Counted from the whole stretch's first letter, positions 8,442 to 41,990 are shown. The stretch: 44,187 nucleotides of DNA, filler included, from Jimgerdemannia flammicorona (GCA_003990765.1; 2 parts of 2 records of this genome joined end to end with filler, not necessarily neighbours in it), one strand, 5' to 3'. Notes: generated by a model not told the origin, from the letters alone. Made by a program: numbers and translations.

Positions 8442-9113
8442 TATAATAAAATAAGATGCAATGAATGAGTAAATAGATGAGAAGTAATATATGATAAGTG
8501 ATTATGTGACTCAGTAATGATATCACTATCAATCAAGTATAATATATGATATATAAACAATGAATGTAATGAATGATATGAATGATGTAAAAAATGATAT
8601 CCAGCTTATCTCCAGCAATCAGCACCAGTAATCAGTACTACAGTAACTCAGATCATTGCTTAATAATTATGGTCCTAATTACAAAGTATTTTTGATTACA
8701 AACTATCTAACAAAGGTCAAGATCACAAATCTCACCATAGTTACCAAATTAGTCACTTATATTTAGTCAGAAATCATAGATCAAATTGTATAAATACTCC
8801 TCAGTTTCCATCAGTCTTTAATATAAGAATTAAGTTCTCCTTTATATATATATGTACATTCTTCTGAGTCTTAATAATAATACCTAAGTGACTCTAGTGT
8901 TTCTGACTAAACTCCAGAAGCCTAGCTAACTTCTGTCAGAACTGAGACAAGTATATAAATCATAAAGACTTAAGTAAATCTATTGAATCTGAATTCTAAG
9001 ATGAATTCAGTCTGTGCATAGCAAAGAATAAGTTTCTTACAACTATAGTTGATAAGAAGGACACTACTACTATAATTACTTTCAAGTGAGTACTTCCTCA
9101 AACTGAAGGCTTC
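8442..9113 (+). repeat. 5' LTR of the old Gypsy (3'-truncated)
   Basis: Colinear with 20249-20851 up to CTCAAACTGAAG(G/A)CTTC; TATAAATA near 8789. Confidence 0.85.
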
Positions 9114-9363
9114 ATTGCTGAGTAAAGTAGTCTAGCTAAAGAATTCAACATTGGGCTAAGAGGAGGAGTAGTTGACTAAGGATTTACTGGTGAAATTTAT
9201 GTCATCTTGTAAAATTTTGGAGACATCTCATTTGAAGTCAAAGCAGACCAAAGAATTGTCTAGACAATCATTGAAATAATTCATCAAAATCTCACTATTG
9301 AAGAAGTCTCTGAGCTCTCTCAGACAGATCATAACAAATAAGAGTTTATATCAATCAATAAAT
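9105..9363 (+). pseudogene. dut: dUTPase remnant (motifs 2-5) in the old Gypsy
   Basis: EGFIAE*SSLAKEFNIGLRGGVVD*GFTGEIYVIL*N...DQRIV*...EEVSELSQTD. Confidence 0.8.
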
Positions 9364-14136: not shown

Positions 14137-14167
14137 GTTGGGGTCTTTGTTGTAACATTCCTTCAAT

Positions 14168-17100
14168 ATGAACAGTACAACTAGGATATTCTCGCTGAAT
14201 GTTAATAGGTTACAGGGGGTGGCTAGGAGGAAGTATATTTGGTTGGCTTAAGGGACTGGATGTGGACCTCTTTTTGTTGCAGGATGTTCATTATGAGGCT
14301 GATGTGGACTTACAGAATTGGACTAGGGAATGGGGGGGTGAGGCATTTTGGAGGGGGAAAGTGGGTATTCTTATTCAGAAAGGGATGGGGAACATTGGGG
14401 ACATTGGACATTGGGGGTCTTGGGTGGTGTGGGGAGTGTGGAAGAGGCCTGGATGGGGCCCACTGATGGTTGGGTCTTGTTACTGCCCAGCTGAGAGAGG
14501 GGAGAGAGTGGATTGGATTTATCGATTGAATGAGGCTGGAGTATTAGGAGGAGTTGGACTGGACTGTTTGGGGGGTGACTTCAATATGGTAAGGGATAGG
14601 AGGTTGGACAGAACTGATGGTGGGAGAGGCATGCAGGGTGAGAGTGGTGGGTTGGGTGACTGGTTGGAGACAGAGAGGTTGAGCTCTCTAGTGGACTCAG
14701 AGAGACATTTTTGGACTGATTGGTGGGTATACACCCACTGGGTGGCAGGGCTGGGCTCCAGGATTGACTGGGTTCTAACAGCAGAGTGTTGGGGAGCAGA
14801 TGTCTGGTCAGGGCTGGAAGTTGTATGGTGTCTGTGGTCTGATCACTGGGGGCTACTTGGAGGGGGGAGGTTTGGGGAAAATGAGAATAGGCCTGGACAT
14901 TGGCAGCTAAATTCTTTCTTGTTGGAGGATAGGGGGTTGTGGGAGGGTTGGGAAACAGAGGTGGTGGGTAATATCGGCAGGTGGCAAGAATAAGGACTGG
15001 AGATTGGTGACCGCTGGAGAAGACTGAAGGCGAATGCTCAGAGGTATTGGAGGGAAGCTGGGAAAGGAAAATGTACCCAGTGAAGGCAGTGGGTGTGGTG
15101 GGCCTCACGGCATCTGGCAATACTCATGGAAAGATGGGTAGGTGTGCTGGAGGATGGGGACGTGACTGATTGGCATATTGTGAGAATCTGGCAGGAGGTG
15201 GAGGAGCTTAAAGGGGTGCTACGAAGAGAGGAGGAGGAGCAGTTGCAGGGAATGGTGGCCTGCCTGTGGTGGCAGGGGCTTGAGGAGGGGGAGAGGCCAA
15301 CTAGGTTCCTGTCATGGTTGTTACAAGCATGACGAATGAGGCAGCAGTGGGAGGGGGTTTTGGATGTGGACAGTGAGCTGATGGTAGGGACTCTGGTGAT
15401 TCTGGGACTATTGTGAACCTGGTGGGAGAATCTTTGGAGTGAGGAGGAAGGAGGATTAGATGCTCTGGATGTTGAAAGGCAGCTGGGGGATTGGTACCTG
15501 AACCCTGTGATGGGACTTGGGGCATTGGGGGACCCAGTAAGTGGTGAGGAAATTTGCAGAGTTGTGGCCTCAATGAGTAAAGGGACAGTCCCGGGAGAGG
15601 ATGGACTTTCCTGGGATTTTTGGCAGAAGATGACTGGGGTGGGTGAGATACTAGAGGAAATGACAGCTATGTGCGATGGAGTTCTTCGGTCTGGTGTTTG
15701 GATTGGGGGACAGTACCTAGGGCTAGTCTCCTTGCTCTATAAGAATAAGAGAAGGTGAGAGGACTGGAAGAACTGGCAGCCAATTATGCTTCTCGACATG
15801 GACCACAAACTGGTGACGAAAATTTTGGTGGTGAGACTGCAAGGTATTGCTCAGCAGGTGCTTGGTGTGGAACAGTGTGGGTTTGTCAGTAGTCAGTTGA
15901 TTCGAGATGGGACAGCCTGGGTTCATGGAGTGATTGAAGATGCCTGGGCAGCAGGGGTGGATGGCAGGTTGGTGTTTCTGGACCAAGAGAAGGCTTATGA
16001 TAGGGAGTGGAGAATATGGCTGGAGGGTGTGCTGAAATGGATTGGTATCCCTCAAGGGTTCCGAGGATCATTGATCAGTCTCTTGGAGGATAGTCAGGTG
16101 GCATTGGTCATCAATGGCCACAGGGGGGTGACCTTTCCCCTGGGATGTGGGGTACTACAAGGGGACCCCTTGTTACCCATTTTGTATGCCCTTTCCCTGG
16201 AGCCACTCCTGGACAGAATTCGGCATCAGATTGAAGGTTTGGACATTTTAGGGGTTAACTGGAAGGTGGGGGCCTTTGCTGATGATATGGTGGTCGGGCT
16301 GGGCTCCTTGGTGGATGTGGGAGAGTTACAGAGGACTGTGGAATAGTATGAGAGGGGTTCTAGTGCTAAGCTAAACTGGCACAAATGCGAGACACTGGTG
16401 CTGGGCACTGGAATTGTTGGTGGCGATGTCATTGGGACAGTGGTACCGGCTGGTGAACCGGTTCATTACTTGGGGATCTACTTCTCGGTGTTTGGATCTC
16501 TTCTTCCCCGAGCATGGTGGGATCATAAACTTCTGGAGTGGGGTAATGTTTTGCTGCATTGGGGAGGCTGGCATATGTCTCTAGCTGGGAGAGTGATGGT
16601 GTTGAATCTATACTGGATGCTGAAGCTGTGGTATGTTGGATATCATTTGGATTTCCCAGCCTGGGTGGTCAAGGGGCTGTTGAAGATGGTGAGATCATAG
16701 ATCTGGGGAGGGTGGCAAAGCCAGGTTGGTTGGGAGGTGCTCACACTGCCCTTGGAGAGAGGTGGGCTGGGCTTAGTAGACTTTACTAAGTGGCTTCTTT
16801 GTCTGAGAGCCTGGTGGCTGTGAAGGGTGAGCAAGCTTCAGGGTCAGGAGTGGGTGCCACTCATGTAGAGATTATGAGAGGTTTGGTACTCTCCACATGG
16901 TGGTTCTGGTGATTTGCTCACAATGGTGGCCATGGAGGGGAGCAGGAGGATGCAGTTTATGGGCTTTTGGTGGGGGGTGGTAGATGGTGCTAAGAAAATT
17001 GGACTTCGGTGGTGAGATGATGAAGCTGAGGAGGTTTGGGGCCTGCAGATGTGGCAGTGAGACAGGCTTCTACTGGGTGGCATTCTGGTGGAGAACTTTC

Positions 17101-17828
17101 AGCTTGGCGAGGGTCTGGAGAGTCTGCGAGGCCTGGGTAGAGACCTGTGGCCAGAAGTCTGGCAGAGGGTTGGAATTGGTGAGGAGTGGGATTGGAATGG
17201 CCTCTGGCATTAGAGCAAATGGGTGAGGCAGTGGCTGCCCCCCAAGTTCTGGGTGGTGTGGTGGCGAGTCCTACAGAGGAATATGATGTTGAACTATCGG
17301 TCGGGACACTTGGTGGCCAGTGGAGTATTTAAGTGTGAGGATTGTTTCAATGTTGGTCAGGAGGGAGGAGTGATACAAACACCTGAACATTGGCTTGGCG
17401 AATGTGAGGTTTTGGAGAAGTTCTGGAGATGTATTATGGACTAGGTGGGGCTGGGTGCTATAGAGAGAAAGGGAGGGGGGAGATGGGGAGAGCTTCGCTG
17501 GAGACTGGTGGGTGGGGTTGGGGATGAATGGCTGACCCTTAGTTGGGCTTTGGCTATGTGGGTTGGGTTGGCTGGGCACTGGGTTCATGTCTTTGAAGAA
17601 GGGCATCAGGTCAGGGTTGGTGAAAAGGTAGCCCATTGGGAATGGTTGCTGTTGGACATTTTGAATAGCTGGTGGCAAGGATGGGGAGTGGGTGGGGGGA
17701 ACCACAGAGGTCTGGTGCAGTGTATATCTCAGAAGAGTAGTGGGAGGATTCGGGTCATTGGTAATTGGGTAGTGCTCAGGCAGGGGGAGGTTGAGGAGGG
17801 GGGGTTGGGTCCCCAGGGTATTGATTGA
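14168..17828 (+). pseudogene. LINE ORF2: apurinic endonuclease, reverse transcriptase and C-terminal CCHC
   Basis: SLNVN, LLQDVH, GGDFN, SRIDW, SDH (APE); HWQLNSFLL, EGERPTRF, PGEDGL, LDQEKAYDR, QGDPL, FADD, YLGI, GGLGL (L1/Tx1 RT); CEDC...EHWLGEC. Confidence 0.92.
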
Positions 17829-20248
17829 GGGTGGGGGAGATATTGTATTGTTAACAATATAGACTTCAGTAATAAAGGGCAGTCCAAGAGACTATAAAAA
17901 AAAAAAAAAAAAAAAACTATTATATCTGACCAAGATACCAAGTTTACAAGCAACTTCTAGAAGGTATTCTTCTCTCTCTATAGAACTAAGCTGAAGTTCT
18001 TTACTACTTACTACTCTTAGACTAATTGTCAGACCAAGTGAACTAATAGGACCCTCAAGCAGATATTCAGCATCTTCTGCTGTTACAAGTAGAATAATTG
18101 AGACAAGTATCTAGCCCATGCCAAGTTTGTCTATAAAAATAGCCAGCAAACCTCTATGAAGAAGACCTCATTCTTCCTGAAACATAGTCAATACTCAAGG
18201 ACCTCAAGTACTCCTGTGAAATTAGTAGTTCCAGCAGCTCAAGATTTGGCTAAGACTATTTCTGACTTTATGCAAATGATAAGAGATATTCTTATAGAAG
18301 TACAGGACTACCAGACTAAGTATACAAACTTAAAGTAAAGAGAAGTCTCCTATAATATTGGTGACATAGTTATGCTTAGAACAGACCATCTCTATCTAGA
18401 TACTCTGGTATAGTAACTATTCAAGAAACTCTATGCTTGAAGAATTGGACCCTATAAGATTGTGGAAAAAGTCAGAAAAGTCAACTACAAGTTGTAACTC
18501 TCTTATAATATTCAAGTATATCTGGCATTCCATATCAGCCAATTGGTAGACTATTATGAGAACTTATTCTCTGAGTATACAGTTCTACCACTATCCCTAA
18601 TTAGGATCAATGACTATGAGGAATTCAAAATTGAGAAAGTGTACTTAACCACAAGGTCTACAAATATGCCAAAACAGTCAAGTGGTTTTTCCTTATTAAG
18701 TGGAAAGGTTACCCCACCCATGATGCTACCTGAAAAAAAGAAGAAATGCTAAAGAATGTATAAAGCTCTTCAGGACTATATAGAAATACTCACCCCCAGC
18801 AGAGAAAGAAACTATAGCTCTAAAATTTAGAGTACATAGCAAAAGAAGAAGATATCATATTTATATAAGATATACAATACTGAATATTACAGAAAAAAAG
18901 AACAACTATAATTAATCAATAATAGAATACTCAGGCAAAGAACAACTCAGCAAGATACAGCAAAACATATTTGAACAATTCTATTTCACACCATCTGTAT
19001 CATCTCTACTGGAGAATGACAGATACTTCATATAGAACTTAAGAAAGCCAATGACATCAAAACCAATCAAAGTCTATCTACATGATAGATATTGTTATTA
19101 AAAATTATCTCAGATTATAAGAAATACTATTTCTGAGAGGTTTGAATCCCAGCCACAACAATAGGAGCCCTTGCCTTAGACAAAGATGGTTAGTCCTCAC
19201 AAATATATCAACAAGATAAAAAAAAAAAAAATGGACTAAGATCTATCCATTCTGTATAACTATATTTATAATATAGTGATATATTTAAAATTAGAATTTT
19301 CTCATATGACTAGTACATGTCCTGCTTACAGCAATAAGTCATACATTCTACTGGAAAATGTGATCAAATTAAAGTCATATCAGATAGATTAATAAATATA
19401 AATACCTTGGGCTGAAGCATACTACAACTTCCATCCCCCTCTTCTCTCTCTAAAGAAAAGATAAGATAAGAATGTCAGCTATCTGCTGCCAAATAGCCCA
19501 CTATAGCCAGCCTCTCTCAAGCCAGGTTGACCACCTTTTTGGACACATTCAGGTCACTATCCAAGGAAGGAACTGCTGCTCTAAGATCCTTAACCTCTTT
19601 AGCCAGGACCTAGGACAGTATGTCCTTGACTACTGTGAAGTCATCAAAAGGACCTACCTTGCTATCAGCTGCCTAGAAATCTAGTATAAATAAAAAATTG
19701 TCCATCAACTTCTTAATATATAAATGACCTACCTACTGATCAGACCTCAGACTGGACCAACCTAGTAGGTATAAGCAAAGACTAGATAAGAAGGTCTATC
19801 AAATTATGTACTATACACTCTTTACAATTTCCAATCTCAACTATGTACAACTGAAAGACTTTCAGAACCTCTCATTCTTTGAGATTGTTAAGCTGGAAAT
19901 CAAGATTATCCAAGAAGCCAACTTCTGGATTACTTTCAAATCCACTAATTATAAATCTCACTGGAGCTCTCTCTTATATAACAATCTAGACCAATGGCTC
20001 TAAGGTCTCTCTGATCTTTTTGAAGAACTGCCTATCTGAATAGATATTTCTAGGCATAAGGAATAAGAACTCAACTTAGATGGTCTCAATTATATTAGAT
20101 GGAGAACTCTTACTTCAATATCTATATTAGTTTAAGAACTATTTGTAGACCTCATTGACTTCTCTATCTTAGATATTGAGTCATCAGCAACTATCCCTCT
20201 AGCCACTAGAGGAGAAGATAATAATACTGATTTTTAAGAAGAGAAAGA

Positions 20249-20933
20249 TATAATAGAACAAGATATAATGAATGAGTGAACAGATGAGATATGATATATG
20301 AATGATATAAATAATATGAAAAATAATATCTAGCTTATCTATAGCAATTGCTACTACAGCAATCAGTGCTGCAGTAACTCAGATCATTACCTAATAATTG
20401 AGGTTCTAATTATAAAGTATTTTTGTTCACAAACTACCTGACAAAGGTTGTGATCACAAATCTCACCATAGTTATCTTATATTTAGTCAGAAATCACAGA
20501 CCAACTTATATAAATACTCCCTAGTTTCTATCCAAAATAAAGGAGTTTTAGTTCAGTCCTTGATATAAGAATCAAGTCACCTTCCATATACATACATTTC
20601 TCTGAGTCTTAGTAATGATATTTAAGTAATACTAGTATTTCTAACTAAGCTCCAGAAGTCTAGCTAACTTCTGTCAGAACTGAGACCAGTATATAAATTA
20701 CAAAGACTTAAGTAAACCTATTGAATTTGAATTCTAAGGCAAATTCAGTCTATGTATAGCAAAGAACAAATCTCTTATAACCACAGTTGAAAAGAAGGAT
20801 ATTACTACTATAACTACTTTTAAGTGAGTGCTTCCTCAAACTGAAGACTTCTTGATATATATTATATACTAAGTCTCTTTGTTTTCCCAATTATCCAAAG
20901 GATAAGAGAGGGGTAGAAATAAGAGTTATTATA
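20249..20933 (+). repeat. 3' LTR of the old Gypsy (~685 bp)
   Basis: Preceded by a PPT, matches 8442-9113, followed by a near-TSD. Confidence 0.85.
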
Positions 20934-20982
20934 TTACTACTACTCTTATAAGAGCCTACAGAGCTCTCTCCTATACTATACT

Positions 20983-21630
20983 TATAAGTATATATACTGA
21001 AATCATATATTACCCCCAGATTAAATTTAGAAATTACATACAAGATCATGAAGCTAAGTCAAACTAAAGTTACAGATTACCAAATCTGAATCAGGAAATT
21101 ATCTGATGCTTAGTCAGAAACAAGTCACAAGAACTATAGTAATAACTGTAGTAATAACTATATAGCAATAGCCACAATAACTATAGCAGCCATACTTATA
21201 AATAAAATCTTATATAATATGACTGTATGTTGACTCAGCATAACTAACATACTAATGGCTATTTTAGTTTAGTATTAAATAGTATTAAAATATATAAATA
21301 CTATCTTTTTTTTTGAACTATAAAGTGATACTTCTTTTACTGAGATCAAATTCTATAATAAAGTCAGTTATTGGATTCCTTAATCTACTTCTAGGATTTT
21401 AACATATTTATATAGAGCTCAACCTCTATATGTGAATTAATAATGACCAAAAAGAAAATAGTCTTCTTAAACTTCTAGAAAAACTCTTTCAGAACTATAT
21501 AACATTACTCTAATAAAGTACTTTCTTATAACTTGATAGTAGTAGTTTTTATAATCCAATACTACTTCAAGATACTTTCTCACCTATACTATACTCCTGA
21601 ATACAAATAATAATAGTATATAAATGATGA
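20983..21630 (+). mobile_element. Degraded short 5' LTR, PBS and leader related to the Gypsy at 33429-44054
   Basis: GATCATGAAGCTAAGTCAAAC near the start; the end ...CTTATA-ACTTGATAGTAGTAGTTT..ATCCAAT..CTTCAAGAT mirrors the LTR/PBS junction at 41940-42000. Confidence 0.65.
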
Positions 21631-21638
21631 TAATATAT

Positions 21639-22049
21639 TGTAACAGACCAAAAACGTACCACCTGAATTATAACTTAGCCAGATGATGCGAACAATTAGC
21701 ATACTTACTCAGCATGATGTGACTTCCAGTGTATCATAGTTACTCATGCCCGCCACACTTATAATTAGCCAAGACACCAGATCAGGATTGTTTACCTGTG
21801 TCCTGCGGACACACTCATGTCCTGCGGACACACTCATGTCCTGCGGACACACTCATGTCCTGTGGACACACTCATGTCCTACAGACACACTCATGTCCTG
21901 TGGACACACCTGTACCCAGAGAACACACCCAAACATTACCAAAGATAGCAAATGTATAATTAGCCACATAGTAACCAGATAGCAACCAACTTGTATAAAT
22001 TACCCCAGTGGCGAGAGTGAATAAAACCTCAGTCCGAAAGTTGAATACA
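21639..22049 (+). mobile_element. Gypsy-like LTR, cut by the assembly gap
   Basis: Starts TGTAAC; TATAAAT...AGAGTGAATAAAACCTCAG is similar to the LTR at 25247-25695. Confidence 0.65.
21799..21909 (+). repeat. 19-bp tandem repeat (TGTCCTGCGGACACACTCA), ~6 copies, in LTR U3
   Basis: Read directly; each unit contains a TGTCC/GGACA dyad. Confidence 0.9.
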
Positions 22050-22149
22050 NNNNNNNNNNNNNNNNNNNNNNNNNNNNNNNNNNNNNNNNNNNNTTAATTA
22101 ATTAANNNNNNNNNNNNNNNNNNNNNNNNNNNNNNNNNNNNNNNNNNNN
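22050..22149. other. Assembly gap with artificial six-frame-stop linker
   Basis: 44 N + TTAATTAATTAA (22094-22105) + 44 N. Confidence 0.97.
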
Positions 22150-22189
22150 AAAATGGCATTGCTGATGCTTTATCCCGCACTGATCTTCC

Positions 22190-23254
22190 TTGTTTCCATC
22201 GTCTTGCCCCTTACACTCAGACGCTTCTGACTGCGATTGGTATCATTTGCATTCCGCGCTTCCACCCATCATTGCCTTCTTTTTGTGGTTTGGACTGGCA
22301 AAATCAATGCGCCACTCATACTCTTCAGGACAATGCAGCTTCCTCCAATTCTGCAATCTCCATGGCGGTAATTATGCCTCCGGCAGGCCTTTGCCCACAT
22401 CCGAACTGGTGCTAATGCGGTGGGTCTGTAGCTTGGCCTTGCGATGGCTTCAACCATCCACAATCAAATGTTACCTCTCAGCTGTTCATTCTCTACACAT
22501 TGACTCCGGTTTTGCCAATCCATTCATCAGTCTTCACCAACTTCCCCGAGTGATGCATGGCATGAAGCGGTGGCTAGGCATATGCCCAACTCGACCTCGG
22601 CTTCCTATCATGCTTGGTATTCTTCACAGTCTTATCAGTTTGCTTCAGCTATCTGATTATGATGATCTGCATCTTGCGACCACGATGTTACTTGCATATG
22701 TCGGCTTTCTTCGCTCCGGCGAATTTATGTGGGATGGGTCTTTCGATCCCGTTTCCCAGCTGTCCCGCGGCTCTGTGGTCTTTTAACCTAGCATTGCCGA
22801 CCCCACCCATATTACGCTCACCCTGCCGGCCTCTAAAACAGACCCGTTTTGCCAGGGTGCAATACTTTTTATTGCCAAAACGGATCCCGCCATGCCATGC
22901 ATTGTATCCTTACTTCGCCTTCTTTACCTGGCGCACCCAGCCCCACCCGACACCCCTCTGTTCCGGCGTTCCACGAATCGATCATTCTCTCGGGTCTATC
23001 TCATTAGTCGTCTTTGTATGTTACTTTCACAGATTGGTCTGAATCCACTTCTTTATGCCGGGCATAGTTTTCGGATTAGTGCAACATCCGATGCCGCTGC
23101 GGCCGGTTTATTCGATTACGAGATTCAGATGTTGGGTCGGTGGGAGAGCGTGGCATTTAAAGGCTATATTCACATGCCTATTTCTCACATTCTCCACCTT
23201 CAGGCTTCATTAACTCGTAATACTTGTTCTGTTACTCATATTACTTGCGATTAA
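22190..23254 (+). pseudogene. Tyrosine recombinase (DIRS/Ngaro type), one in-frame TAA at 22784
   Basis: STIKCYLSAV, RLPI, GFLRSGE (R), SKTDPF (K), GHSFRI (HxxR), LGRWES, GYI (Y). Confidence 0.93.
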
Positions 23255-23824: not shown

Positions 23825-24575
23825 TTGGGCCGGTCTTTTATACCGTGTGTTTCCACCCAAATACAGAACAATCGATCATTTATTTGAGGTTTCTTTCCTA
23901 GGATTTCGGGGTGATACATGGTCATTTCGGTGACATGGGGTTATTGGTGTTTTATCACGAAGATTGACATCATGTAAGTGTAGCGTAGTTGACATTATGC
24001 AAAACATAGTATAGTTATGCCTCCCTAGCATAGATCGACATTATGGCAAAAACATTGAATGAGGGGGCTCGCTCGAGACCACAGGTCAATGAATGCAGGA
24101 AGGTCTTGGGTGTATAGTGCCCAAAATGTTTCAATGCCATTGTTTGTCTAAGGCATGTCTAAATCAGGCGTAGTCTTTCCTTTTTTGGTACTAGCGCAGT
24201 AGACACATTACTTCTATATGTAATTCTACCATTCACTCAACATTACTTCGTATGTGCTTTACACTTACACTTTTGCACTTCTGTACATTTATACGCATTT
24301 CATTACCACCCACCTCACCCTACATATATATACATAGTGGTTGGGCTGGTCTTTTATACCATGTGTTTTCACCCAAATACAGAACAATTGATCATTTATT
24401 TGGGGTTTCTTTCCTAGGATTTCAGGGTAATGCATGGTCATTTCAGTGACATGGGGTTATTGGTGTTTTATCATGAAGATTGACATCACGTGAGTGTAGC
24501 GTAGTTGACATTATGCAAAACGTTGTATAGTTACGCCTCCCTAGCATAGATCGACATTACGGCAAAAACATTGAA
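23825..24575 (+). repeat. Split direct repeats B1 (23825-24059) and B2 (24341-24575), 235 bp each
   Basis: TTGGGC(C/T)GGTCTTTTATACC...GGCAAAAACATTGAA present twice, differing mostly by transitions. Confidence 0.92.
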
Positions 24576-25695
24576 GGTCCTGATATATCAGAATATGGTA
24601 GAAACTTCATGGTCACAAAAACTGGAGCCTAAGTGGGAAGAACCTTACCTTGTGCAAAATATAAAAGAGACCAACTTTTGACTATGAAAACACTCAGGCA
24701 CAATCATCCCCACTGCTATTTACTAAAACTGACTCAAGAAGTATTATGGTCAATCAACAGAGTAATATCACAGCTCTCAAAATTACCAGTGCTACACAAT
24801 GAGCCATAGAAAGACAGTAGTATTCTACCAAGCCACCAACTATAGAGGAATTGTTTGATAGTATTCAGAGTATAGTACAAATACACTTATCACAAATTTT
24901 ACATTTTAAGATATACCAGGACTGGACAAGTTTCAAGAATACTTCAAGCTTGAGCAAATACTGAATTTATAACTAAAAATGGAAAAAGAAGACTGGACCT
25001 GAGAATGCCAGCTCTCTTATACTCAGATTACTATTGCCAAATAAGTAAACAAGTTGTTTAAAGAAGATGAAATGGCTTTAGCTTATATCTGAGAAGTAAC
25101 TCCAACAGACTTCAGACATATCAGGAGATAATATTGGGAGAATATAATGATGCAAATTATATAGTACAAAGAGATACAAATTGTAGAAGCTGGGAGTTTG
25201 AGTAAATAGAGTATCTTAGAGATGAATCACCTATTCAGGAGAAAGTTGTGATAGTTGATCTGAATTAGAAACATAAATCAGGAGAATTAGACATTTGATC
25301 ATAGTATCTGAAACCAATTTCTAATATAGTATAGCCATATAAATAGCCATCATAGAACTTTGCTACTAGTGAAAACCTTATTACTAGCAAATACTTTGCT
25401 ACTAGTGAAAACCTTACTACTAGTAAATACTTTGCCATTAGCAAAATGACTCATAACTTAGCCACCTTATAGCTAGCAAACTTGTATAAATAACCCAGTA
25501 TCTCAGAGTGAATAAACCTCAGATTGAAATAGTTCAAAGTAAAGAGAAAACAAAGAAACTAGTAAGCCTATAGGTAGATACACTTTGAACTCACCCACCC
25601 CTGCATCCCAAGGACTCTGCAGAGTCAAAGAAGATCAAGTTTTCAAGATAGAGAAATCTGATGTACTTCCAAGGTTAAGCATTTACTATGTTATA
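24576..25695 (+). mobile_element. 3' end of a second Gypsy element: integrase GPY/F tail, accessory ORF remnant, PPT and 3' LTR (~25247-25695)
   Basis: KLEPKWEEPYLVQNI...LKKYY; PPT AGGAGAAAGT then TGTGAT; TATAAAT/AATAAA in the LTR; 18-bp tandem repeat at about 25357-25445. Confidence 0.7.
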
Positions 25696-26869: not shown

Positions 26870-29800
26870 ATATTTTTTTTTATTTTTATTTTTTATAGTT
26901 ATATAGACTTCCACTTTATTACCAAACCATCTATAATATACAGTTAATATAAATATACTCCTCACCCAATCCTACTCAGAAATTTCTCTCTCTCTCTCAC
27001 TATTACCAAAACACTGCCAACCCCCCCACTATCTCCATCCTCCCCCCACTCTTTCTACAGATTATATTCACCAATTATTACCAATACCCTCCCCCAGTAC
27101 TTCCACCCCTCTACTACCAATTCAATATATCTAATATCAGCCACTCTTATTTAACTATCCTCATCCCCAAGAGCAACTGTTGATCCTCCTCAAATACAGA
27201 AAGCCAATGTCTGGTCAGTCTAATCCAAATTACTAGCACTCATCCTAATATTAGCCACTCATCTCCCAACCCCCCTATCAGCCTCCTCTGGAGGTCATCC
27301 CATCTCACTCCTACTACCAACTCTGGTGAGTACACCCCCAGCTACACCTCAATCTTTCTCCAAAAGTCCCCCATCACCTCATACTCCTCTAGTCAATATT
27401 CAGGAGTCTGTACCACCTCTCTCTCTTCTGCTCAATGTTCAGACACTTCTTGTACTCCCAGATATCCCTTTTAACCAAGTGGCCTATCTGATAGTTTAAC
27501 ATATTATTGTACTGTAAAACTCTCCACTATACTACCTGAACTTGCAGGGGATCTATCTTGCTGCCTGCTTGCCCTACTGCCAAATACTATTTCAGTCTCA
27601 CTTCTTGCCAATTCCCACTCCCTGCTATACCTCAGGCCACAGATCTCTCCCATATTCCCAAAGGCACTCTATGCCATCCTCCAAGCAAAAATCATCTACC
27701 AGTACTCCACTTAATAGAAGATAGTCCCACCTCTATATCTGGGGTCTCCATTTCTCCTCCCTCTCATTACCCCTTTATTGGAGACCAATATGGTATGCCC
27801 CATCAGCTACCCCCTACCAGAATCTTCTATACTATATCCTCTGACTTCTCTCTAAAGCCACCAGAGAAAGAAGATCCCCAGTCACACCATGGGGGGAGAA
27901 TTGAGCTTTCCACACCTACTATATAAGGGGAACCCACTCTCTGCCCCTCAACTTGCTCACTTCAGTGACCATACTTTCAAGTAGTGAAGATGCTTGGAAA
28001 AATCTATTAGACCCAGGCCTCCCCTGTCCACTGGCCAGATCAACACCTCTCAACCAATCTGACTCTGTCACTCTATCTATATTCAGGTTCTGGCCATCTT
28101 TAGCAGTTACTTGACCACTCATGCTGAAATGTCCAAGTGGTATCCTAGATATTACAGCTTAGGTGGTCAGTTTACATTCATCACAGTTACTCTTTCTACC
28201 AGAGAAATATAGTGACCACCCCACCCTAAGAGAGTACTTCTCTACTCAGCCAACCTCTGCTTCCACCACTCATATGGCAGTAAGGAGCCACATACTGAAA
28301 AGTAAATTTCCAGATAGTGAATAGCCTCTCCTACTGAGACAATTGTTTCAATCATATCCCCACCTACTATTCCTCCTCTCAGCACCAAAGTCTCACACTT
28401 ATATCAGTTGAGCTTGATACCTAAGTACTCTTCATATCACTCTACTGTACCTTACAGAGCTGTAATATCTACAACTGACCCCAGTCTGACCATATTATCA
28501 GTAAAGGCCCCCACCTTCCAATTAATCTCTAGTATGTCCAACTCTCCCACCTTATACTGTATTTTATCCAAAAGTGGCTCCAGAGATAGTATATATAGAA
28601 TTGGCAACAGTTGACCCCACTGCAGCACTCCTCTGCCCAGAGGGAAAGAAATCCCTCTGTGTCCATTCAATATAATTACTGCCTGACTCTCTTCCAACAG
28701 ACTGACCAAGGTCCACCAGGCTCTATGGGGGACTCTAATGTACTTTAGCACCCTTTTCAATTACACTCACCAGACTCTATCATAGGCCTTCTTCTGATTT
28801 AAGAAAACCAGTCATTCATCCACCCCAGCAGTACAAACACTCTCAATAATATCATACACTCAGGCTATCTCATCTCTGATCAGATATCTCCCTATGAATC
28901 CTCTTTGCTCAGCCTCCAGAACTTATTACACTACTCCCTGCAGCCTAGCCACCAGTACCTTCATGACTAGTTTGTAACCCATATCCAGAATCATGATTTT
29001 TTCCACTCTTCCTACCTCCTTTTATTCTTAAACAGCAGAGCCACAAGACCGAAGCTCTGCTCTCCAATCCATACCCCAGAGTCTATTACTTCATTGTATA
29101 TTATTATTATTTTCTCCAGGGCCAACTTGACTCCTACAATCCTTTTCCAGAAATTCCATTATAAGCTATCCTCCCCTGCCACAGTTCCAGAGCTTGTTGT
29201 CTACAGAACTTACCAAATCTCCTTGCTCTAGACAGCAGCACCAAGATTGCCTAAGTCTGCTGCCAAATCAGGGTACTATTCCTCCAAGTACCTGTCAATG
29301 TCCAATACTCCCTCACCACTATCCTTCTCACTTCACAGGTATTCCCACTGCTTGCTCAACTGGTCCAGAATCTCCAGTGTCCCAACAACCAACTCTCCAG
29401 CCTCATTCAAAATCCCCTCCCACTGCTGCCAGACTCTTCTTGTCTATAACAGCTGTGACAAAAACTTGATAGGTTATTCCCCCTCTTCCAATCTCTGCCA
29501 CTATAGCCTGGCCACTATGCTCTTAACCTGTAGGTCCTTCTTCTGATACAGAATGCCCTTCAGCTCCTCTACCTCCAGCCTGGTCTATTATATATGCCAA
29601 TCTCCCTCCTCTCTTTTATTTGTCTGATCTGCCCAAGTCACTAACAACCTCACCAACCTCTAGGAGGCCCACCTCATTTGCTTTTTCCTCTGAGTACCCT
29701 GCATCCTTCTTGCCTCCCCCCAATACCATTGTGCCTCAGATTTCAATCATACTAAGTGATCCCTAATCCCCAGTCCTGCTGCTCTCCAACCAAGAATCCT

Positions 29801-32800
29801 AGAGCTAATGTCTATCTAGTGCTCCTAATGAGTCAATTTAATCCGGATTGGATTCGGATTGATTCGGATTGAATCCCATCCAGATCAACTCAGATGGGAT
29901 TCGAATCCCATCTGGATGGATCAACCATTGTTTTGATTTCCAAATTAGACAATTAAATGTTTACATCAATAACTTGATGAATAATCATCCAAATTTGATG
30001 ATCTTGGTGTCATTTGAAAGTCCTTAATATGGCCTATCTAATGATACCAAGAACATTGAAATTGGATTATGTGTTGCTGAGTTATGAAGGAAACCATCTG
30101 AATCGCCGATTTTGGAAATTCTTCGATTTGCCAATTTTGGAAATTTCGTCAAATGTAACGTTTTCTTTAATATCTCAGCAACACGTAATCCGATTTTAAT
30201 GTTCTTGGTATCATTAGAAAGGCCTTATTAAGGGCTTTCAAATGACACCAAGATTATCAAATTTGGATGATTATTCATCGAGTTATTGATGTAAACATTT
30301 AATTGTCTAATTTGGAAATCAAAACAATGGTTGATTCAAATCCATCTGGATGGGATTCGAATCCCATCCGGATTGACTCGTTTGGAGCACTATGTCTATC
30401 ACTTATGCCTCCTATAAGGAGGCCTAACCTAGCAAAGAGATATTCAGTTGCCAATATCCAGGCCCCTCCCCACCTCTCCCAAAATACCCCCCTCCTAATG
30501 GACCCCAGTAATCTGATCACAGACACCATAAAGTCTCTAAATTTCTCCAGATATCAACTCTCCAGCAATCTGCAGTCAATATCCAGTTAATCCTCAAGCC
30601 TAGCCCTGCCACCTAGTGGAAAAAGACCCTATAATCCCCACATCCAAGTCTCCCAGCATCTATTAGAGAGCTCAAACATTCGACTTCCTCTCAGGCTTCT
30701 ATACCCCCACTCCTGTCTGTCATCTCTCTACCCCTATTAGTTCTGTCTATCTTTCCATCATATATTATGTTAAAGTCTCCCCCTAGACAATCAATCTCTG
30801 CCTCCACCAATACTCCAGACTCTTATAGCTCTCAGATCTATTCCATCCTCTCCCCTCTTTCTACTGGACAATAATATAACCCAACTATCAGAGACCTCTA
30901 GCCTGGCCTCTTCCAAACTCCCACACTTCCCTACTCCTCTAATGTCTAATGTCTCCAATGTCCCCCTTACTCTTCCAAATCAGAATACCCACACAACCTC
31001 ATCAAACAGCCACACTACTTCATTCTTTCATCCAATCCTGACTATCTAAGTCTCTATCATGCCTAATATCCTATAGTAAGAACAAGTCATCTTCTATCCC
31101 CTTCAGCCATCTAAAAAGATATTTTGCCACCTCACTGCCTCTTATAGCCCATTGACATTCAGATATAAGATTCTAGTTATACTGTTTATATTGAATAATA
31201 TTGTTTAAATTATAGCTATATACTCTATAATTCCATACTCACAGCATCTCTAGCAATATCCAGGTCCCTATCTACCTCCAGTTCATTTGTCTCTCTATAT
31301 TGAGCCTTCAATATCTCCAAGATCTCCTGACAATCCTCACTATCCACAGCCTTCATCTCTGTACAGTACTCTTCATACACCATCTGTCACTTTGCCAGCT
31401 CTTTTCTTAGGCCCCATATATAATCAGCTCTATTATTTGCAATCACTAGAAGTGCTGCCTCTCTGATGATATTGATCTGATATACCTTAGCCTCCAACAA
31501 TACCACTATTATATCATCCTGGAGTTTCTGTGGCACCTCTTCACTATATATGATTTTCCCCCAATGTCTCTCACTTAGTATCTGGAAGTCCTCTCCCCCC
31601 AGCTACTCAGCTGTCATATTCTTAAGTATTTTCTACAGCCATTTCTCCTTGACCTCAGTCTCTGCCACTCTCTAGACAACTCTCATCTCTCCCTCCACCT
31701 ACCTCCCCTCTGCATTCCTCCTTGCTGACTCATCCCAATCCTCCTCTAGAATATTCTGCAATTTGTCATCAACTCTAGCCCCACTTGGTACCCCATACTG
31801 AGGGTCCTCTCTCTCTGCTATCTCTGCATCCTCCACAATAATACTCAGCCCTGCACCCTCTCCCTCTCCTGGGATCCCCTCTGGTGCTGCCCTCTTCTAT
31901 TCTACCCAGACACTTGCCTTCAATTAAGCCATTTCAGTGGTGGTCCCCCCAGCTGCCCCCCCTCTCAACTTAGCTAGCAGCTCTTTCTGAATGTACCTTC
32001 CCTGTGCTCTCTTCCAGGCTGCCTGATCTAGCCACACCTTGCTATTGACAATCTCTACAATCATCTTGGTCTCATACTTCTTTCAGGCCAATCTTCTCCT
32101 CTCCACAGCTCTAGCCAGATCCTCTATACCTTCAGTAAGTCCTCTTCTTCCTCTAGCATCTCTTTCACTTACAAGATCTTATACTCTACAGGTTCCCACT
32201 TAAGAACTGCCAGCCAGTCCCTTGCCTTCTCTGTATTCTTCTTACCTGCTAGCTATACCTTGATGTCCACATCTCTTGTCCTAAATTTGGTACCTTCCCA
32301 GACCCTAAACCTAACATCCACAATCTTCTCATACTCCTTGACAGTCTCTACAATCAACATCTGGCCATTTCTTTCAACACCATAGGAACATCCAGTACTG
32401 TTAGCTGCACTACTCAGGAGTCCCAGTGCAAGCACTGGGACATAGAGATTACTACTCCCCCTACTATCACTCTCTTCTCCATTCTCTCCAATAGTATCTC
32501 CTCCTTCTCAAAGCCTATCTCCACCACTTTTAGTCTCTTCAAAACTTCACCAATGTGGCCCCCTTCATCTTCTGAGTCAGAAGCCTAAGAATCATCCTTG
32601 CTGTCACTACCAAGCCTCAGAAATATAATTTGATAGTGAATTCTGACCTCAATTTCTTAAGTAATAGTGCTGTCACCAGGTCTGTCACATCATCTGTCAG
32701 GTCTCTGAGCCTTGTGTCCACCCTCTGTCCAGATTTACCATCAATTATTACATCTGGATTTTTTTCTAGGTTAGTAGTCCTCTTGCCATCAGCAGTCTCA

Positions 32801-33201
32801 ATCCCACCAGCCACTACTCTCCCAGCTCTACTGCTCTCACCACTACAAGCTGCTCTCCCAGAACCTACAGCCCTCACTATCTCCTTACCCTTTTTCAGCT
32901 AGCTCTACAGTCTTACCATCAGTTGACCTTCCTTTATCTTATCTGTTAAACTTATCCTCCTAGTCTCCTATTTCCCAGTACTACCTCCTCTTCTTCTATG
33001 TTCTTCAGCCAGCAAGTCCCTCATACTTCTCCTCAAACCATGACTTCTCCCCACATACTGTCAGTTAAATATACTAAGGCTACTCTACCTAGCATATACC
33101 TCAGAATACTCATCAGTTGCCATGTTGCTAGTATCTTTTCTCCAAAAATAAAGTCTTGAATATTATTTGAAGTTTGTATAACCAAATATTACCAGAGAAA
33201 G
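26870..33201 (-). mobile_element. Degraded near-full-length copy of the L1/Tx1-type LINE
   Basis: T-rich tail ~26873-26895 with TTTATT signal; ILYILSLEPLLDKI..WKVGAFTDN (28452-28760); ORF1 LLLKKLRSEF (32617-32877); family 5' UTR at ~33125-33201. Confidence 0.9.
29817..30392. mobile_element. Non-autonomous hAT element (palindromic MITE, 576 bp)
   Basis: TIRs TAGTGCTCC..GAGTCAAT / ATTGACTC..GGAGCACTA; perfect 8-bp TSD TGTCTATC (29809-29816, 30393-30400); long internal inverted arms. Confidence 0.95.
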
Positions 33202-33428: not shown

Positions 33429-35469
33429 TGTAAGAGGGTTACTTTTTAGGATAACTGTTATGTAGTTCTGGAAGGGTTTTCTGGAAGTTCGGGATATTCT
33501 GGAAGACCGTTTTCTTATGGTCAAGGTCAATTTCATATGGAGTATGTCCTCTACGCTTATTAATTTCAAGATTGGGTTGACGTCTCAACCAAAGTCCTTT
33601 TCCGGACTAGTTCTGGATGTTCAGGATTTTCCGTATTTCAGGAAGTTCAGGAAACTAAGACCAGCTTAGTTGGATTGGCATATCGCTGCAGACAATACCC
33701 AATTAGGAAATTTCGTGGCAGGGTTGGGAGTGGGACCTAACAGGGAGCGGATTTACTTAAGAGTGATTTGTGGGTTATGGAATAGATTTATTTGCTATTC
33801 ATGATATTGCTATACTAGGAGTATTTGTGTGAAGGGGTATTATGGGGAAGTATTCAGGAATGTTCTTGTCTGTTCGAGTCTCAGATTCTGAGGTCTGGGA
33901 GAGGGGGTATTTATACTAGTGAGGGGCTATCTGGACTATGCTAGATATGGATGTAGCACTAAGTGCCTTGCTGAGTCGGAATGCAGTCACGTAGTACAAG
34001 TGTGATCTGACATGTCAAGAGATCATCTGACTGCTGAGTCAGTTCACAGTTACATCGTACAAGGCTAATCTATCTATACTATGACTGCTAGACTATTTAT
34101 AGGTCTAGGCACTATCTGGGTAGTCTTCGATGACATCACCATCAATTGCATCATCTCTGATGAAGTAGTCGTCTAGGAAGAGTGGTTCGTGGATTACTTC
34201 TCCTTGTTGGCTGAGGTAGTAATATATTGGGACTTCATCTCCGTCCCATAGGATAGTATCATCTGTCTCGTATGCTGGATAAGGTGTTGGTAGGCGAAGG
34301 ATGGGTGTATTGTCTTCACTTTCATCAGATCCACTATCTGCGTACCTTCTATAGGTTACAGCACTATGAGTCGCGGGGTTGTAGTAAGCTGGCGGCTGTG
34401 GTTCAAGTTGCTTGTACTCGGGTGGTGTGGTTGGTTCAATCTCGAGGGTTGTCTGGAGATACAGATTGTGTTCTCTGGTCTCTTCATTGTAGTTGAAGTA
34501 GTCAGGGGTGAATGCAGGTTAGTATTCGTGCCAGTGGTCATTGTCCCAATAAGTCTCGTATGCAGTTATGAACTGTTGTAAGTTCATTGGCAAGGTTGGC
34601 GGAGATCCTTGGCTAGAGGTCATATCAGCGTCAGAGGGGTTGTTGTCTTCTGCTTTGTCTTCATCGAAGTGGATTATATCATAGACGTCCTTCATGGCAT
34701 ATCTGACTTGAGGCATTTGCAGGATATGGTCATCGGGGTGCGGGAAGGTTCTGTCTGTGGTTTCGACATACTCGAGGTACTTGTGGTTGATTTCTTGTAT
34801 CATGTCATCGATTTGGCCGTAGGACAGGGTAGCAACCATTTCGCTGGTAGTGACTCGGAGGCGGGGAATAAAGGTGTTGTACTCATAGAAGAGTTCTCGA
34901 TGTTTGCGGGCGATGAGCTTCTGGTGTTGAGACATCTGGATAATGTCTGTATCATGGTGGTGTTCGACCATGTCTTCCAGGAGGCAGCCGATCTGGTAGT
35001 AGCTTGAGATTTGTCTGATTCGGTGTGCCTCGCTAAGCATGTTCAGGGCGTTCCATCGGGCTTCCACGAAGTAGAGGGGTGCCAGGCTATGGATATTCAT
35101 GAGGGGCAGAGGGGGTGTGGCTCGGTTGACAATGGCATTCCAAATGTCAGTGCGGATGCAGTTGTAGATCTCAGTGGTCATGTTGGTGTGTTTGGAAGTT
35201 GGGGTTGTTGTTTGTTTTGGTTTTCTGATTCGACGCATCTCGGTGCTCAGTATATATGCATTTGGTCCTGATTGGTAAGGTTCCGTTTGTGTAGATCTTG
35301 TATTCCGTGACTTCATATTGACTCAGCTTTGTGTACTGTGACTTCGGTTTGACTCAGCTTCATGATCAAGCAGGTGATTTCCAGATTTGTTCAGAGGTCG
35401 CGTGTGATTTCAGTGGCTTGTTCAGAGGGTGATGTGTAATTTCGGTGGCTTGGAGGTTGTGCGCTTACA
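33429..35469 (-). repeat. 3' LTR (2041 bp)
   Basis: Colinear with 41991-44054; TATA at 33908-33915; preceded on the minus strand by a PPT. Confidence 0.93.
34105..35316 (-). CDS. LTR U3-encoded protein of unknown function: 265-aa ORF plus an in-frame acidic 137-codon extension after a TAA at 34519
   Basis: Open frame 35316-34519; the same frame stays open to TAG at 34105; a homologous frame is present in the 5' LTR. Confidence 0.7.
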
Positions 35470-35484
35470 ACTCTCCCCTTCTTA
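35470..35484 (-). promoter_or_regulatory. Polypurine tract
   Basis: Minus-strand AAGAAGGGGAGAGT directly before TGTAAG. Confidence 0.9.
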
Positions 35485-35896
35485 GCTTTTGACGTTCTCG
35501 TCGGGGCCTTCTAATTTGTTCTAGTGTTGTTACACCGTTTGGGAGGTCAAAAGTCTGGTAAGGTCCATTTTCTCAGAAAGTGGCATGCTCGTAGTACAGT
35601 TGCCTAACGTGTTGGATTCACACGTTAAAGGCTCGTGTGTTCAATGCCATGTGCTGGAAGTGATTCTGACGTCGTTCACTGCTGGAGAATTTCCTCTAAG
35701 GAATCTTCTTAAATGTCTACGCCTTGTTTCCCACCAGTGGTACAGAGAGAATAGGCTTGCTTTCAGTTTTTGCTATTTTTCCAGGGATTCGGTAGTCTTG
35801 TCTTGTTTTGCTGAGTTCTTGATTTGGTTCGTGATAATTATAATGTTTGGAAGGATAATATATAGTGTGTGTGGATAGGTGCAGAGTATTTTGGTT

Positions 35897-38800
35897 CTAG
35901 TTGTTTAAGGACTCATATTCCTGAACTAGGTCAGTAGCATTCTGGAGGTTGGTCTTGGGTTCCCAGGTTGCATCGTGGATCGGGTAACCTTTCCATTTGA
36001 CAAGGTACTCGGAATGGTTCTTGTTACCACGTTTGTTGAGGATTTGTTCAACTTCATATTCTTCTTGGTCATTTATGATGACAGGTGCAGGTGGTTTGGT
36101 GGTCCGGTTTGGAAATAGCTTGTCATCATTGTCATTGTATCGCTTGAGACGTTGAACATTAAAGACTGGGTGAATCTTAATAGTGTCTGGTAGTGCTAGT
36201 TTGTAGGAGGTTGGAGAGACTTGTGCAATGATTTTGAATGGTCCAATAAACTTGCTGTTCAGCTTTGTAGATGGTCTGTGCTTGAGGTTGTCAACTCGGT
36301 ATCCTCTGATATCCAGTAGGACTTTTTCTCCAATGTCAAAGGTTTCTTCTCGGCGGTGTTGGTTAACATACTGTGACTGTTGTTCTTGAGCTCGGGATAG
36401 ATTCTCAATGGCAATCTGGCTTAAATTGCACATTCGGAGTAGGAATTCTTCAACTGCTTCAACTGTGGAGGGTTCTTCAGTGGTTCGGATAAGTGTCAAA
36501 GGGGTGTTTGGATTTTGTCCAGTATTGGCGAAGAATGGGGTCATTCCAAGAGAGGCTTGCTTGCTGTTGTTGTAGGCAAACTCGACTGCGGTGAGATGTT
36601 CATGCCAATCATCTTGTCTGTATGAGACATAGTTCCTTAGCATTTGTTCCAGAGTTCAGTTCATTCTTTCAGTTTGGCCGTCAGTTTCAGGGTGAAAGGC
36701 TGTGGATAGTGCAAGTTTCATTCCAAGGTGTGCATGGAGGGCTTTCCAAAAGTGGCTGGTGAATTTCGGATCTCGGTCACTAACAATGATCTTGGGAAGA
36801 CCATGATAGTGGAAGATGTTGTCAAATAAGAGTGTGGCTATGTCTGGTGCTGTTGCAGTAGTAGTAGTAGGCACAAAGTGAGCTTGTTTGCTGAGATAGT
36901 CCACAAAGACAACAATTGCATCTTTCCCGTTCTTTGTTCGGGGTAGTTGCATGATGAAGTCCATAGAGATTTGTTCCCAATTTGCAGATGGTACTGGAAT
37001 AGGGTGGAGTAAGCCAGGTTTTGCTAGTGTTGAGGACTTGTTTCATTGGCAGGCATCACAGGAAGTAATGTAGGTTTTGAGCTGATCTGCCATGCGGGGC
37101 CAATAGAAGTTTCGGGAGATAACTTCATAACATTTATCAAATCCTAAATGTCCAGCTGTAGGGGCATCATGATATTCGAATAGGATAGTCCTTCGGAGGT
37201 CTCGGTTGTTTGGAACATACAATCTGTCCTTGTAGTAGATAGCATTGTCCTTGAGTTGGTATTGATTATACCGGGTATGCTTGTCAGCATCATCATTGTT
37301 CAGGATTTCTCGGAGTGCTTGAGCTTCTTTATCATCAACATATGCTGCGATGATTTGTTCCATAATAGTGTTGGTAACCAAGGTCAGAGTTTGGATAACC
37401 TCTTCGATTAGTGGTCTGGAAATTGCATCGGCAACAATATTTTCCTTGCCAGGGCAGTACTGAATTTCGTAGTCAAAGTTGGTGAGGACTTTCATCCATC
37501 TAGCTTGCTTTCAAGAAAGGGTAGCCTGTGTCTTGATATTGACTAATGACTTGTGGTCAGTCAATACAGTAAAGTGTGCTCCTTCTAGGTATGGTCGCCA
37601 TTTAATCAGAGTGTCTACGATGGCTAGCATTTCCTTCTCGTGAGTTGCGTAGTTGATTTCAGCATCATTGAATTTGCGGGAGTGGTAGACCACAGGGTGT
37701 CCTTCTTGCATGAGTACTGCTCCAAGAGCTAGGTCAGAGGCATCAGTGGTAACTTCATATGGTAGGGCAGGGTTTGCCGCTTGAAGTACAGGTGTGGTTA
37801 TCAGGGCATCTTTCAGTGCTTGAAAGGTGGTATCTTGTTTGGGTCCCCAAGTTACAAGATTGTTGAAGTTTTTCTCTTGTTTCATGGTCCAGGGTTGTTC
37901 TTGTTTCTTACTGTGCTTAGTCATTTGGGTGAGGGCAGTAGCAATTTTAGCAAAGTTGGCAATGAATCGCCTGTAATAGTTTGCTAATCCCAGGAATGAC
38001 TGGAGGTCTTTCAGCTTCTTCAGTGTGGGCCAATCTTTGATTACAGCGATTTTGCTGGGGTCCACTTTGATTCCATTTGGGGTGACAATGTGTCCAAGGA
38101 ATTGAATTTCTTTCAGAAGAAATTCGTACTTGCTGAGTTTTGCAAAGAGTCGGTTTTCTCAGAGTTTCAGTAGTACTAGTTCAAGGTGTTCAAGATGTTC
38201 CTCCAGGGTTTTGCTGAAGACTAGGATGTCATCAATGTAGACAACAACGAATTTGTCCAGGTATGGATGCAGAATAGTATTCATCAGTGTCTGGAAGGTT
38301 GCTGGGGCATTAGTTAAGCCAAAGGGCATAACCAGGAACTCGAAGTGTCCATAGCGAGTTCGGAAGGCTGTCTTGTAGATGTCTTCTTCTTTCATGGCAA
38401 TTTGCCAGTAACCATTTCGCAGGTCAAAAGAGCTCATGAATTGTGGGTTGGTAAGTCTATCGAATATTTCATCAATTCTTGGTAGTGGGCAACAGTTCTT
38501 GATGATCTGTTCATTGAGGTCGTGGTAGTCAATGCACATTCGTAGGTCTCCTCCTTTCTTGACAACGAAGAGGACTGGTGCACCATAGGGTGATACACTG
38601 GGTCTGATGAATCCTTATTCTAGGAGTTCGTCAATTTCCTTCTTGAGTGCATCAATTTCTCTCGGAGACATGTGGTAGATTGACTTGAAGGCTGGTTTGG
38701 CGTCTGGGATAGTCTTGATGGCATGATCTACTGCTCGTTTGGGAGATAGGCCTTTTGGGAGCTTCTTTGGGAATATGTCTTGGAATTTCTGGAGTAGTGG

Positions 38801-41987: not shown

Positions 41988-41990
41988 AGT

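Follow-up and report, generated by a model that had tools for sequence, protein, structure and literature searches.

The 44,187-nucleotide stretch of Jimgerdemannia flammicorona DNA studied here (GCA_003990765.1; called the window below) consists of nested retroelements, one of which carries on the plus strand, at 24746–25205, a decayed open reading frame (ORF) that we call ORF-X. With a probability of roughly 0.85, this segment is what is left of a genuine accessory gene, now dead, belonging to a non-chromoviral, dUTPase-bearing lineage of Ty3/Gypsy elements. When a stop-masked translation of 24559–25248 was used as the query, with residues 66–230 scored, P0005, a protein of 153 residues, was the single protein returned at E<=1 among 64 candidates (E 9.7e-27), and BLASTP of the remnant against P0005 gave 54 identities in 88 positions (61%; E 3e-37). 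A search with P0005 returned nine proteins at E<=1 among 20 candidates, namely P0005 and eight others that are 66–83% identical to it. The hidden Markov model (HMM) of the nine-member family alignment, A1, matched the window at 24746–24958 (78.9 bits) and at 24928–25134 (85.3 bits), in two different frames, the two matches covering model positions 1–71 and 62–130. Sequence comparison thus puts the decayed-gene status of the remnant far beyond chance. The preliminary description of this DNA had placed the ORF at 24799–25210, a span that covers only the part after the first frameshift and so misses the start of ORF-X; the start, the frame and the coordinates are corrected here.

The position of the remnant is that of an internal gene between pol and the polypurine tract (PPT), as the preliminary description had it. 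The C-terminal, SH3-like tail of an integrase (IN) lies at 24574–24786 on the plus strand (tblastn with IN residues 183–253 of L001, the intact element described below: 66% identity, E 1.7e-25). ORF-X follows with its ATG at 24746, then the PPT AGGAGAAAG at 25237–25245, read from the sequence, then a T, and then the 3' long terminal repeat (LTR) at 25247–25695, about 449 bp, placed by blastn to the LTR region of L001. The ends of this LTR, TGTGAT...GTTATA, have decayed from TGTGAC...GTTACA. Among contigs of the public runs (soil metagenomes, 'organism A'), which cover the remnant thinly at a likeness of at least 85%, a loose contig end at 25680 runs on into an L001-type LTR end and primer-binding site (PBS). 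The integrase tail is all that remains of pol in this element; the rest is missing, and another insert lies upstream of 24576. A GC-richer element, which follows an assembly gap and has 235-bp direct repeats at 23825–24059 and 24341–24575 (93% identical) and ORFs at 22184–23251 for which no Pfam family was matched, truncates the ORF-X element at 24576.

Scanning metagenomes with A1 gave a single locus, L001, a 6479-bp contig that is an intact element of the ORF-X lineage and supplies a further intact copy of the ORF; the alignment with L001 added is A1b. Pfam matches in L001 follow the order zf-CCHC, aspartyl protease, dUTPase, RVT_1 and RNase H, and the element reads gag, protease (PR), dUTPase, reverse transcriptase (RT), RNase H (RH) and IN, the integrase ending without a chromodomain. 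Its pol ends at 5838, and ORF-X occupies 5795–6256 in the +1 frame, overlapping pol by 44 nt. The sequence GGAGGAAG, T, TGTGACGG begins 33 nt past the end of ORF-X, with TGTGAC as the LTR start, so the order of pol end, ORF-X, PPT and LTR is the same as in the window. In intact elements ORF-X has 153 codons, stops about 35 nt short of the PPT and 3' LTR, and is the 3'-most cistron of the element RNA. A scan of viral_contigs with A1 gave 35 pattern matches, and no ORF-X relative was confirmed among them. Positions 1–130 of L001 are a 79% identical repeat of 6224–6349, where ORF-X ends and the PPT and the beginning of the LTR lie; this terminal repeat may come from tandem elements with a common LTR or from a two-copy assembly.

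Blastn aligned L001 5626–6385 with window positions 24577–25335 at 74% identity over 761 nt (E 1.6e-136). Aligned to the L001 ORF, the remnant has eight in-register stops and single-nucleotide deletions after 24927 and after 25190, and its first 61 codons stand in another frame than the part that follows. The window copy resembles the family over the whole ORF and sits between the integrase end and the PPT and LTR, as a member should, but with its broken frame it is a family pseudogene. By codon position, the remnant differs from L001 at 36/27/72 sites (chi-square p 3e-6), a pattern indicating that the lineage evolved under protein constraint before the window copy died.

A second accessory gene lies in E1, the best-preserved element of the window, a Ty3/Gypsy chromovirus on the minus strand at 33429–44054. 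Self tblastn and Pfam gave the order gag (CCHC), dUTPase, PR, RT, RH, IN and chromodomain, with Pfam matches to Chromo (3e-18) and SH3_Tf2-1 (2.4e-18). The PR-RT-RH-IN order, the C-terminal chromodomain of the integrase, the TG..CA ends of the LTRs, the PPT and the PBS are those of a Ty3/Gypsy chromovirus. The 3' LTR (33429–35469, 2041 bp, TGTAAG...CTTACA) is adjoined by the PPT AAGAAGGGGAGAGT at 35470–35483, and the 5' LTR (41991–44054, 2064 bp) is followed by the PBS-like TGGTAGTAGTGG, all on the minus strand. E1 and the ORF-X lineage are distinct, as the preliminary description had proposed: E1 is a chromovirus and the L001-type element has no chromodomain, identity between their RT-RH regions is about 35%, and their dUTPases lie on opposite sides of PR. 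The dUTPase is present in all three Gypsy elements considered here, at 39440–40024 (minus strand) in E1, at 9126–9473 (plus strand) in a second chromovirus of the window, and at about 2715–3100 in L001; both chromoviruses have it before PR, whereas the ORF-X lineage has it between PR and RT. Its core includes a 63-nt stretch with 81% DNA identity between the lineages.

The "U3 protein" of the preliminary description is real. Each E1 LTR carries a copy of it, which we call ORF-U3. Copy A (34105–35316, minus strand) has 403 codons and a TAG stop, interrupted by one internal TAA at 34519–34521; its uninterrupted part is 265 codons (35316–34522), and reading through the TAA extends it to 34108 and the full 403 codons. 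Copy B (42669–43901, minus strand) has four in-frame stops. ORF-U3 occupies LTR nt 154–1362 of 2041 (1365 with the stop), or nt 154–1386 in the numbering of the 5' LTR. A TATA-like CTCTATATAA, a candidate assigned by eye, lies at about nt 1955 of 2064 in the 5' LTR, and since ORF-U3 is upstream of this box and begins 153 nt past the LTR start, it lies wholly within U3. It is thus placed as a U3-borne gene would be, between the 5' end of the LTR and the putative promoter, with a copy in both LTRs. Its relatives P0002 and P0006 are 65% and 92% identical to it, and P0002 has Gln at the position of the internal TAA and is colinear thereafter. In almost all copies on the contigs of four public runs (27, 11, 1 and 4 contigs) position 34521 is G rather than A, giving CAA on the coding strand. 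The TAA, at codon 266, is common to both LTR copies (34519–34521 and 43086–43088); a parallel C>T change, gene conversion and read-through are all possible. A scan of viral_contigs with A2, a four-member ORF-U3 alignment, gave 12 pattern matches, none of which was confirmed as an ORF-U3 relative.

Differences between copies A and B fall at the three codon positions as 31/18/71 (chi-square p 5e-9), and dN/dS between them is 0.16 (0.19 before and 0.10 after the TAA that they share). The parts of the LTR that flank ORF-U3 show no phase bias (6/4/2 and 23/17/22), and composition does not explain the pattern, because GC is 0.53 at codon positions 1 and 3 alike. Judged by these substitution patterns, ORF-U3 has been under purifying selection. 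The two E1 LTRs, which are 89.4% identical, therefore diverged not solely by neutral decay after one insertion. E1 looks recombinant, and the unlike 5-mers that flank it, GTACC and CTTTT, fit this.

The manner in which ORF-U3 came to lie in U3 can be approached through a short related LTR without the ORF block, about 604 bp long, which alignment to the long LTR placed at 20928–21531 on the plus strand. The purine tract AAAGGATAAGAGAGGGGTAGAAATAAGAG (20897–20927) stands before it, and an E1-like PBS and leader come after. Its matches to the long LTR lie at nt 56–151, at nt 1401–1459 (E 4e-4), and at nt 1951–2068 with the leader; nt 152–1400, the block that holds ORF-U3, is missing, and 90 bp stand in its place. 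Since the PPT, and the LTR from nt 56, are alike whether or not ORF-U3 is present, the ORF is a discrete block that was either inserted into U3 or deleted from it; gain and loss are both compatible with the comparison. No contig that skips the ORF block of the LTR was found among the matches listed from the four public runs. The short LTR with its surroundings (20897–21584) is either common to two tandem elements or the 5' LTR beside a truncated element. Just upstream of it, 20298–20851 repeats 8569–9113 (79%), a stretch immediately upstream of the dUTPase of the plus-strand chromovirus. Between the leader of the short LTR and the assembly gap, short tandem repeats at 21740–21980 encode a repeated peptide, for example CGHTHVLRTHSCPADTLMS, in three frames.

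The preliminary description had aligned the remnant with ORF-U3 by eye and had taken the two for one protein family. The peptide strings that it quoted are present in the window, at 24937, 25009 and 25138 on the plus strand and at 35004, 34938 and 34809 on the minus strand. That alignment is at chance for the remnant itself; the same register is recovered by BLASTP, hhalign and HMMER from intact relatives, with borderline support (E 0.03–0.04; shuffle p 0.0001–0.02). The likeness is confined to a core of about 58 residues, in which ORF-U3 residues 98–155 (34852–35025, minus strand) align with ORF-X residues 58–117, represented in the remnant by approximately 24917–25095 on the plus strand, the sole segment with borderline similarity to ORF-U3. 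BLASTP of P0003 against P0005 gave as its best alignment ORF-U3 residues 98–157 with ORF-X residues 59–119 (17/62 identities, E 0.039). The profile-profile comparison that the preliminary description had called for was run with hhalign: A1 against A2 gave E 0.03 and a probability of 1.7% over 52 columns, and A1b against A3, an alignment of the ORF-U3 core, gave a score of 20.85, E 0.012 and a probability of 3.5%, a score reached by 2 of 376 column shuffles.

Shuffled controls for the intact pair gave comparable results. Its Smith-Waterman score of 56, against 34.5 +/- 5.5 for shuffles, was reached by 0.33% and 0.47% of 3000 global shuffles and by 0.6–0.75% of 2000 local-window shuffles, and reversed sequences scored 35. 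The score of the A1 HMM on ORF-U3 was reached by 36 of 5000 global and 34–58 of 3000 local shuffles for copy A, and by 7 of 5000 global and 8–18 of 3000 local shuffles for copy B. With an HMM of the U3 core, ORF-X ranked first of 12 non-self element proteins at 10.0 bits, the next being E1 gag at 2.3; the 10.0-bit score was reached by 4 and 1 of 10000 shuffles. When the A1 HMM was run on all six frames of the window, its best non-self matches were the two ORF-U3 copies, in register (iE 0.47 and 3.2). MAFFT aligned the families colinearly, with Met1 of ORF-X opposite Met46 of ORF-U3, nine invariant columns and 20–22% identity. Predicted helices and loops coincide in this register, and both AlphaFold2 models are all-helical, their pLDDT values of 50.8 and 49.5 being too low for a fold comparison. 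Neither ORF-X nor ORF-U3 resembles the gag of E1 or of L001.

On these alignments, the core of about 58 residues may go back to a common ancestor, the chances of this falling a little short of even. The alternative, to which we would give an even chance, is that the two ORF families are unrelated and that the likeness arose by chance, helped by helical character, similar composition and the choice of the pair by eye. A good deal weighs for this alternative and against common descent. The Smith-Waterman score of the remnant with ORF-U3 is 34, where shuffles give 32.8 +/- 4.8; 37.5% of 1000 shuffles reach it, as do 21% of 450 other decayed windows. Tblastn of ORF-U3 on the window found nothing on the remnant at E<=10, and at word size 2, on a 2-kb region around the remnant, the sole in-register piece scored 14.6 bits (E 6.4). 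The hhalign probability is only 1.7–3.5%, and both flanks of the core are without similarity (N-terminal p 0.42 and 0.79, C-terminal p 0.42). The U3-core HMM scored the other nine ORF-X members at 0.0–7.3 bits, against -0.7 to 2.7 for reversed controls, so that P0005 is the best case; the 21 pairwise Smith-Waterman scores run from 26 to 60 with a null near 34, the low ones standing at the null mean. Phmmer of ORF-U3 against 1.84 billion representatives gave three proteins at E<=0.001 (P0002, P0006 and P0007), none of them ORF-X. Both profiles are shallow (Neff about 1.2–1.4), and because the pair was picked by eye among many, the p-values need a multiple-testing discount. ORF-U3 is moreover 2.6 times longer, with an acidic C-terminal half (pI 4.05) that has no counterpart in ORF-X. 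Against mere chance stand the facts that four methods independently choose one register out of all possible ones, that composition-preserving and local shuffles reach the scores in 0.01–2% of trials, that reversed sequences, in which helical periodicity is kept, score lower, and that both ORFs are placed alike, near the 3' end of dUTPase-bearing Gypsy elements from a single genome. One of the three phmmer matches, P0007, is a repeat protein sharing 35.8 bits over six repeats with ORF-U3, and was taken as chance.

The full model of the preliminary description went further: one family, internal in an ancestor, would have come to be in the LTR through an upstream shift of the PPT past it. The positions of the two ORFs are as that model describes, and on the RNA the arrangements differ solely in the side of the PPT on which the ORF lies. 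ORF-U3, however, begins 153 nt inside the LTR and not at its edge; the short LTR, with a PPT of its own, matches the long one at nt 56–151 and from nt 1401, only the ORF block being absent; and the kinship itself is unproven. A move of the PPT past a formerly internal gene thus does not fit the short-LTR comparison and is not supported, and we regard the model as a whole as very improbable. If the kinship is real, the ORF would have entered U3 as an inserted block. A tentative account along these lines, somewhat less probable than not, is that a helical module of about 60 residues passed between two Gypsy lineages that are unrelated but reside in the same genome; it would form a 153-residue gene just upstream of the PPT in one of them, and in the other it would have been placed 153 nt into U3 and lengthened to 403 residues. 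A separate question is whether ORF-X is a gene of its own or a C-terminal extension of integrase made by +1 ribosomal frameshifting, as is used by Ty-type elements. The open frame of ORF-X in L001 starts at 5756, and pol does not stop until 5838, which gives an 83-nt overlap in the +1 frame. Seven of the nine A1 members and L001 nevertheless share a conserved starting Met (MAN...), while two members start at an internal Met, and the ATG is retained even in the decayed window copy. We consider such an extension very improbable and read ORF-X as a separate gene.

Further retroelements make up much of the rest of the window. The second chromovirus, heavily decayed, lies on the plus strand at about 6707–20900, with an LTR end at 6707–7143, its dUTPase at 9126 and its chromodomain near 18760. 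No relative of ORF-X or ORF-U3 was found downstream of its chromodomain, a region too decayed to tell. A weak match of the A2 HMM at 8530–8673 (iE 0.42), upstream of the dUTPase where gag is expected, was taken as noise. A LINE-like element is present in two copies about 65% identical, at 12140–17900 (plus strand) and about 27250–32820 (minus strand), with Pfam matches to Exo_endo_phos and RVT_1 and a very strong GC skew of up to +/-0.55; the insert at about 12140–17900 interrupts the integrase of the plus-strand chromovirus. The assembly gap at 22050–22149 consists of two runs of 44 N (22050–22093 and 22106–22149), and seven 33-bp units stand in tandem at 4764–5071.

ORF-X precedes the PPT and ORF-U3 just follows it in the transcribed copy of U3, each being the 3'-most coding unit of its element RNA. 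Each would be expressed from its own spliced or subgenomic transcript, or else by ribosomes that re-initiate where pol stops. On the structure prediction, the ORF-X product would be a small all-helical protein that serves the element itself. By analogy with 3' accessory proteins of retroviruses and retrotransposons it might act in regulation or RNA handling, a role that we consider doubtful. Several results speak against it: neither ORF matched a Pfam family at E<=10; PDB profile searches gave weak matches for A1 and A2 (asparaginase, E 0.06; SKA1, E 0.5) and none for the joint profile, A4; no named family was clearly matched in an Atlas search; the proteins are not basic (pI 5.7–6.8); and the structure models are of low confidence, with the pLDDT values given above. 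The same Closter_coat cluster and Translat_reg clusters appeared in the Atlas lists of both ORFs, at 0.80–0.93, which is a lead only.

Retroviruses have accessory genes that lie in U3 or run into it, namely MMTV sag, primate lentivirus nef and foamy virus bel2/bet. ORF-U3 resembles these in being a 3'-proximal ORF in or overlapping U3 that is copied into both LTRs; it has no sequence similarity to them, and E1 is an LTR retrotransposon without env. For LTR retrotransposons, a narrow phrase search of open-access texts gave, among the matches listed, no paper on a coding ORF inside an LTR. Extra ORFs between pol and the 3' LTR are described, in excerpts of PMC5408684, as ORF3 of the bdelloid rotifer elements Vesta, Juno and TelKA. 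Types of ORF3 recur there in unrelated, dUTPase-carrying retroelement lineages, which is read as module sharing, and subgenomic or spliced RNA is reported as typical for the ORF3s of LTR retrotransposons (PMC5408684). ORF-X likewise lies between pol and the 3' LTR in a dUTPase-bearing lineage; the rotifer ORF3s of those excerpts have recognisable domains (env-like, GDSL, DEDDy), whereas ORF-X lacks any known domain, and that different lineages share it is unproven.

Among fungi, a figure legend in PMC2864245 draws an unexplained 'add. ORF' for some chromoviruses and basidiomycete Gypsy elements, to which ORF-X may be likened in position. Extracts of the same paper place a dUTPase at varying sites of Pol in the basidiomycete Ty3/Gypsy elements PosPlaTy3-3, -4 and -5 and in Phanerochaete elements, either before PR, the arrangement of E1, or between PR and RT, that of L001; for these elements the extracts report neither an LTR-borne ORF nor a post-pol ORF of 153 residues (PMC2864245). 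In the crapaud element of Podospora, as excerpted in PMC10787394, LTR subfamilies are told apart by their U3 blocks, the remainder of the LTR being conserved, and recombination or gene conversion can leave a single copy with LTRs from two subfamilies. The crapaud blocks in those excerpts are non-coding and shorter than 200 bp, whereas the U3 block of E1 is a protein-coding ORF of 1.2 kb (PMC10787394). ORF0 of Retrosat2 lies upstream of gag and not in the LTR, according to the portion of PMC3485330 that describes it.

Little is understood of the extra genes that LTR retrotransposons carry, most of which lack a known function. ORF-X adds to them a small conserved gene under selection that forms a clear pair with its pseudogene, and ORF-U3 a second selected gene, which lies inside an LTR and whose block edges are marked by an ORF-less sister LTR. 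Since the E1 LTRs are about 10% apart and their differences within the ORF follow a coding pattern, LTR divergence would misdate E1. As a pseudogene of a little-known accessory gene the remnant is ordinary; its interest lies in the possible link to the selected LTR-borne gene, and the hint of a common core in ORF-X and ORF-U3 is testable. If the kinship is false, two lineages independently gained 3'-proximal helical proteins. If it is true, genes have been exchanged between retroelement lineages, and an accessory gene would be able to work on either side of the PPT. Were the exchange of a module to hold as well, each LTR of the E1 lineage, solo LTRs included, would bear a protein-coding gene under purifying selection, and ORF-U3 would be an LTR-retrotransposon counterpart of the retroviral U3 genes, with a traceable donor.

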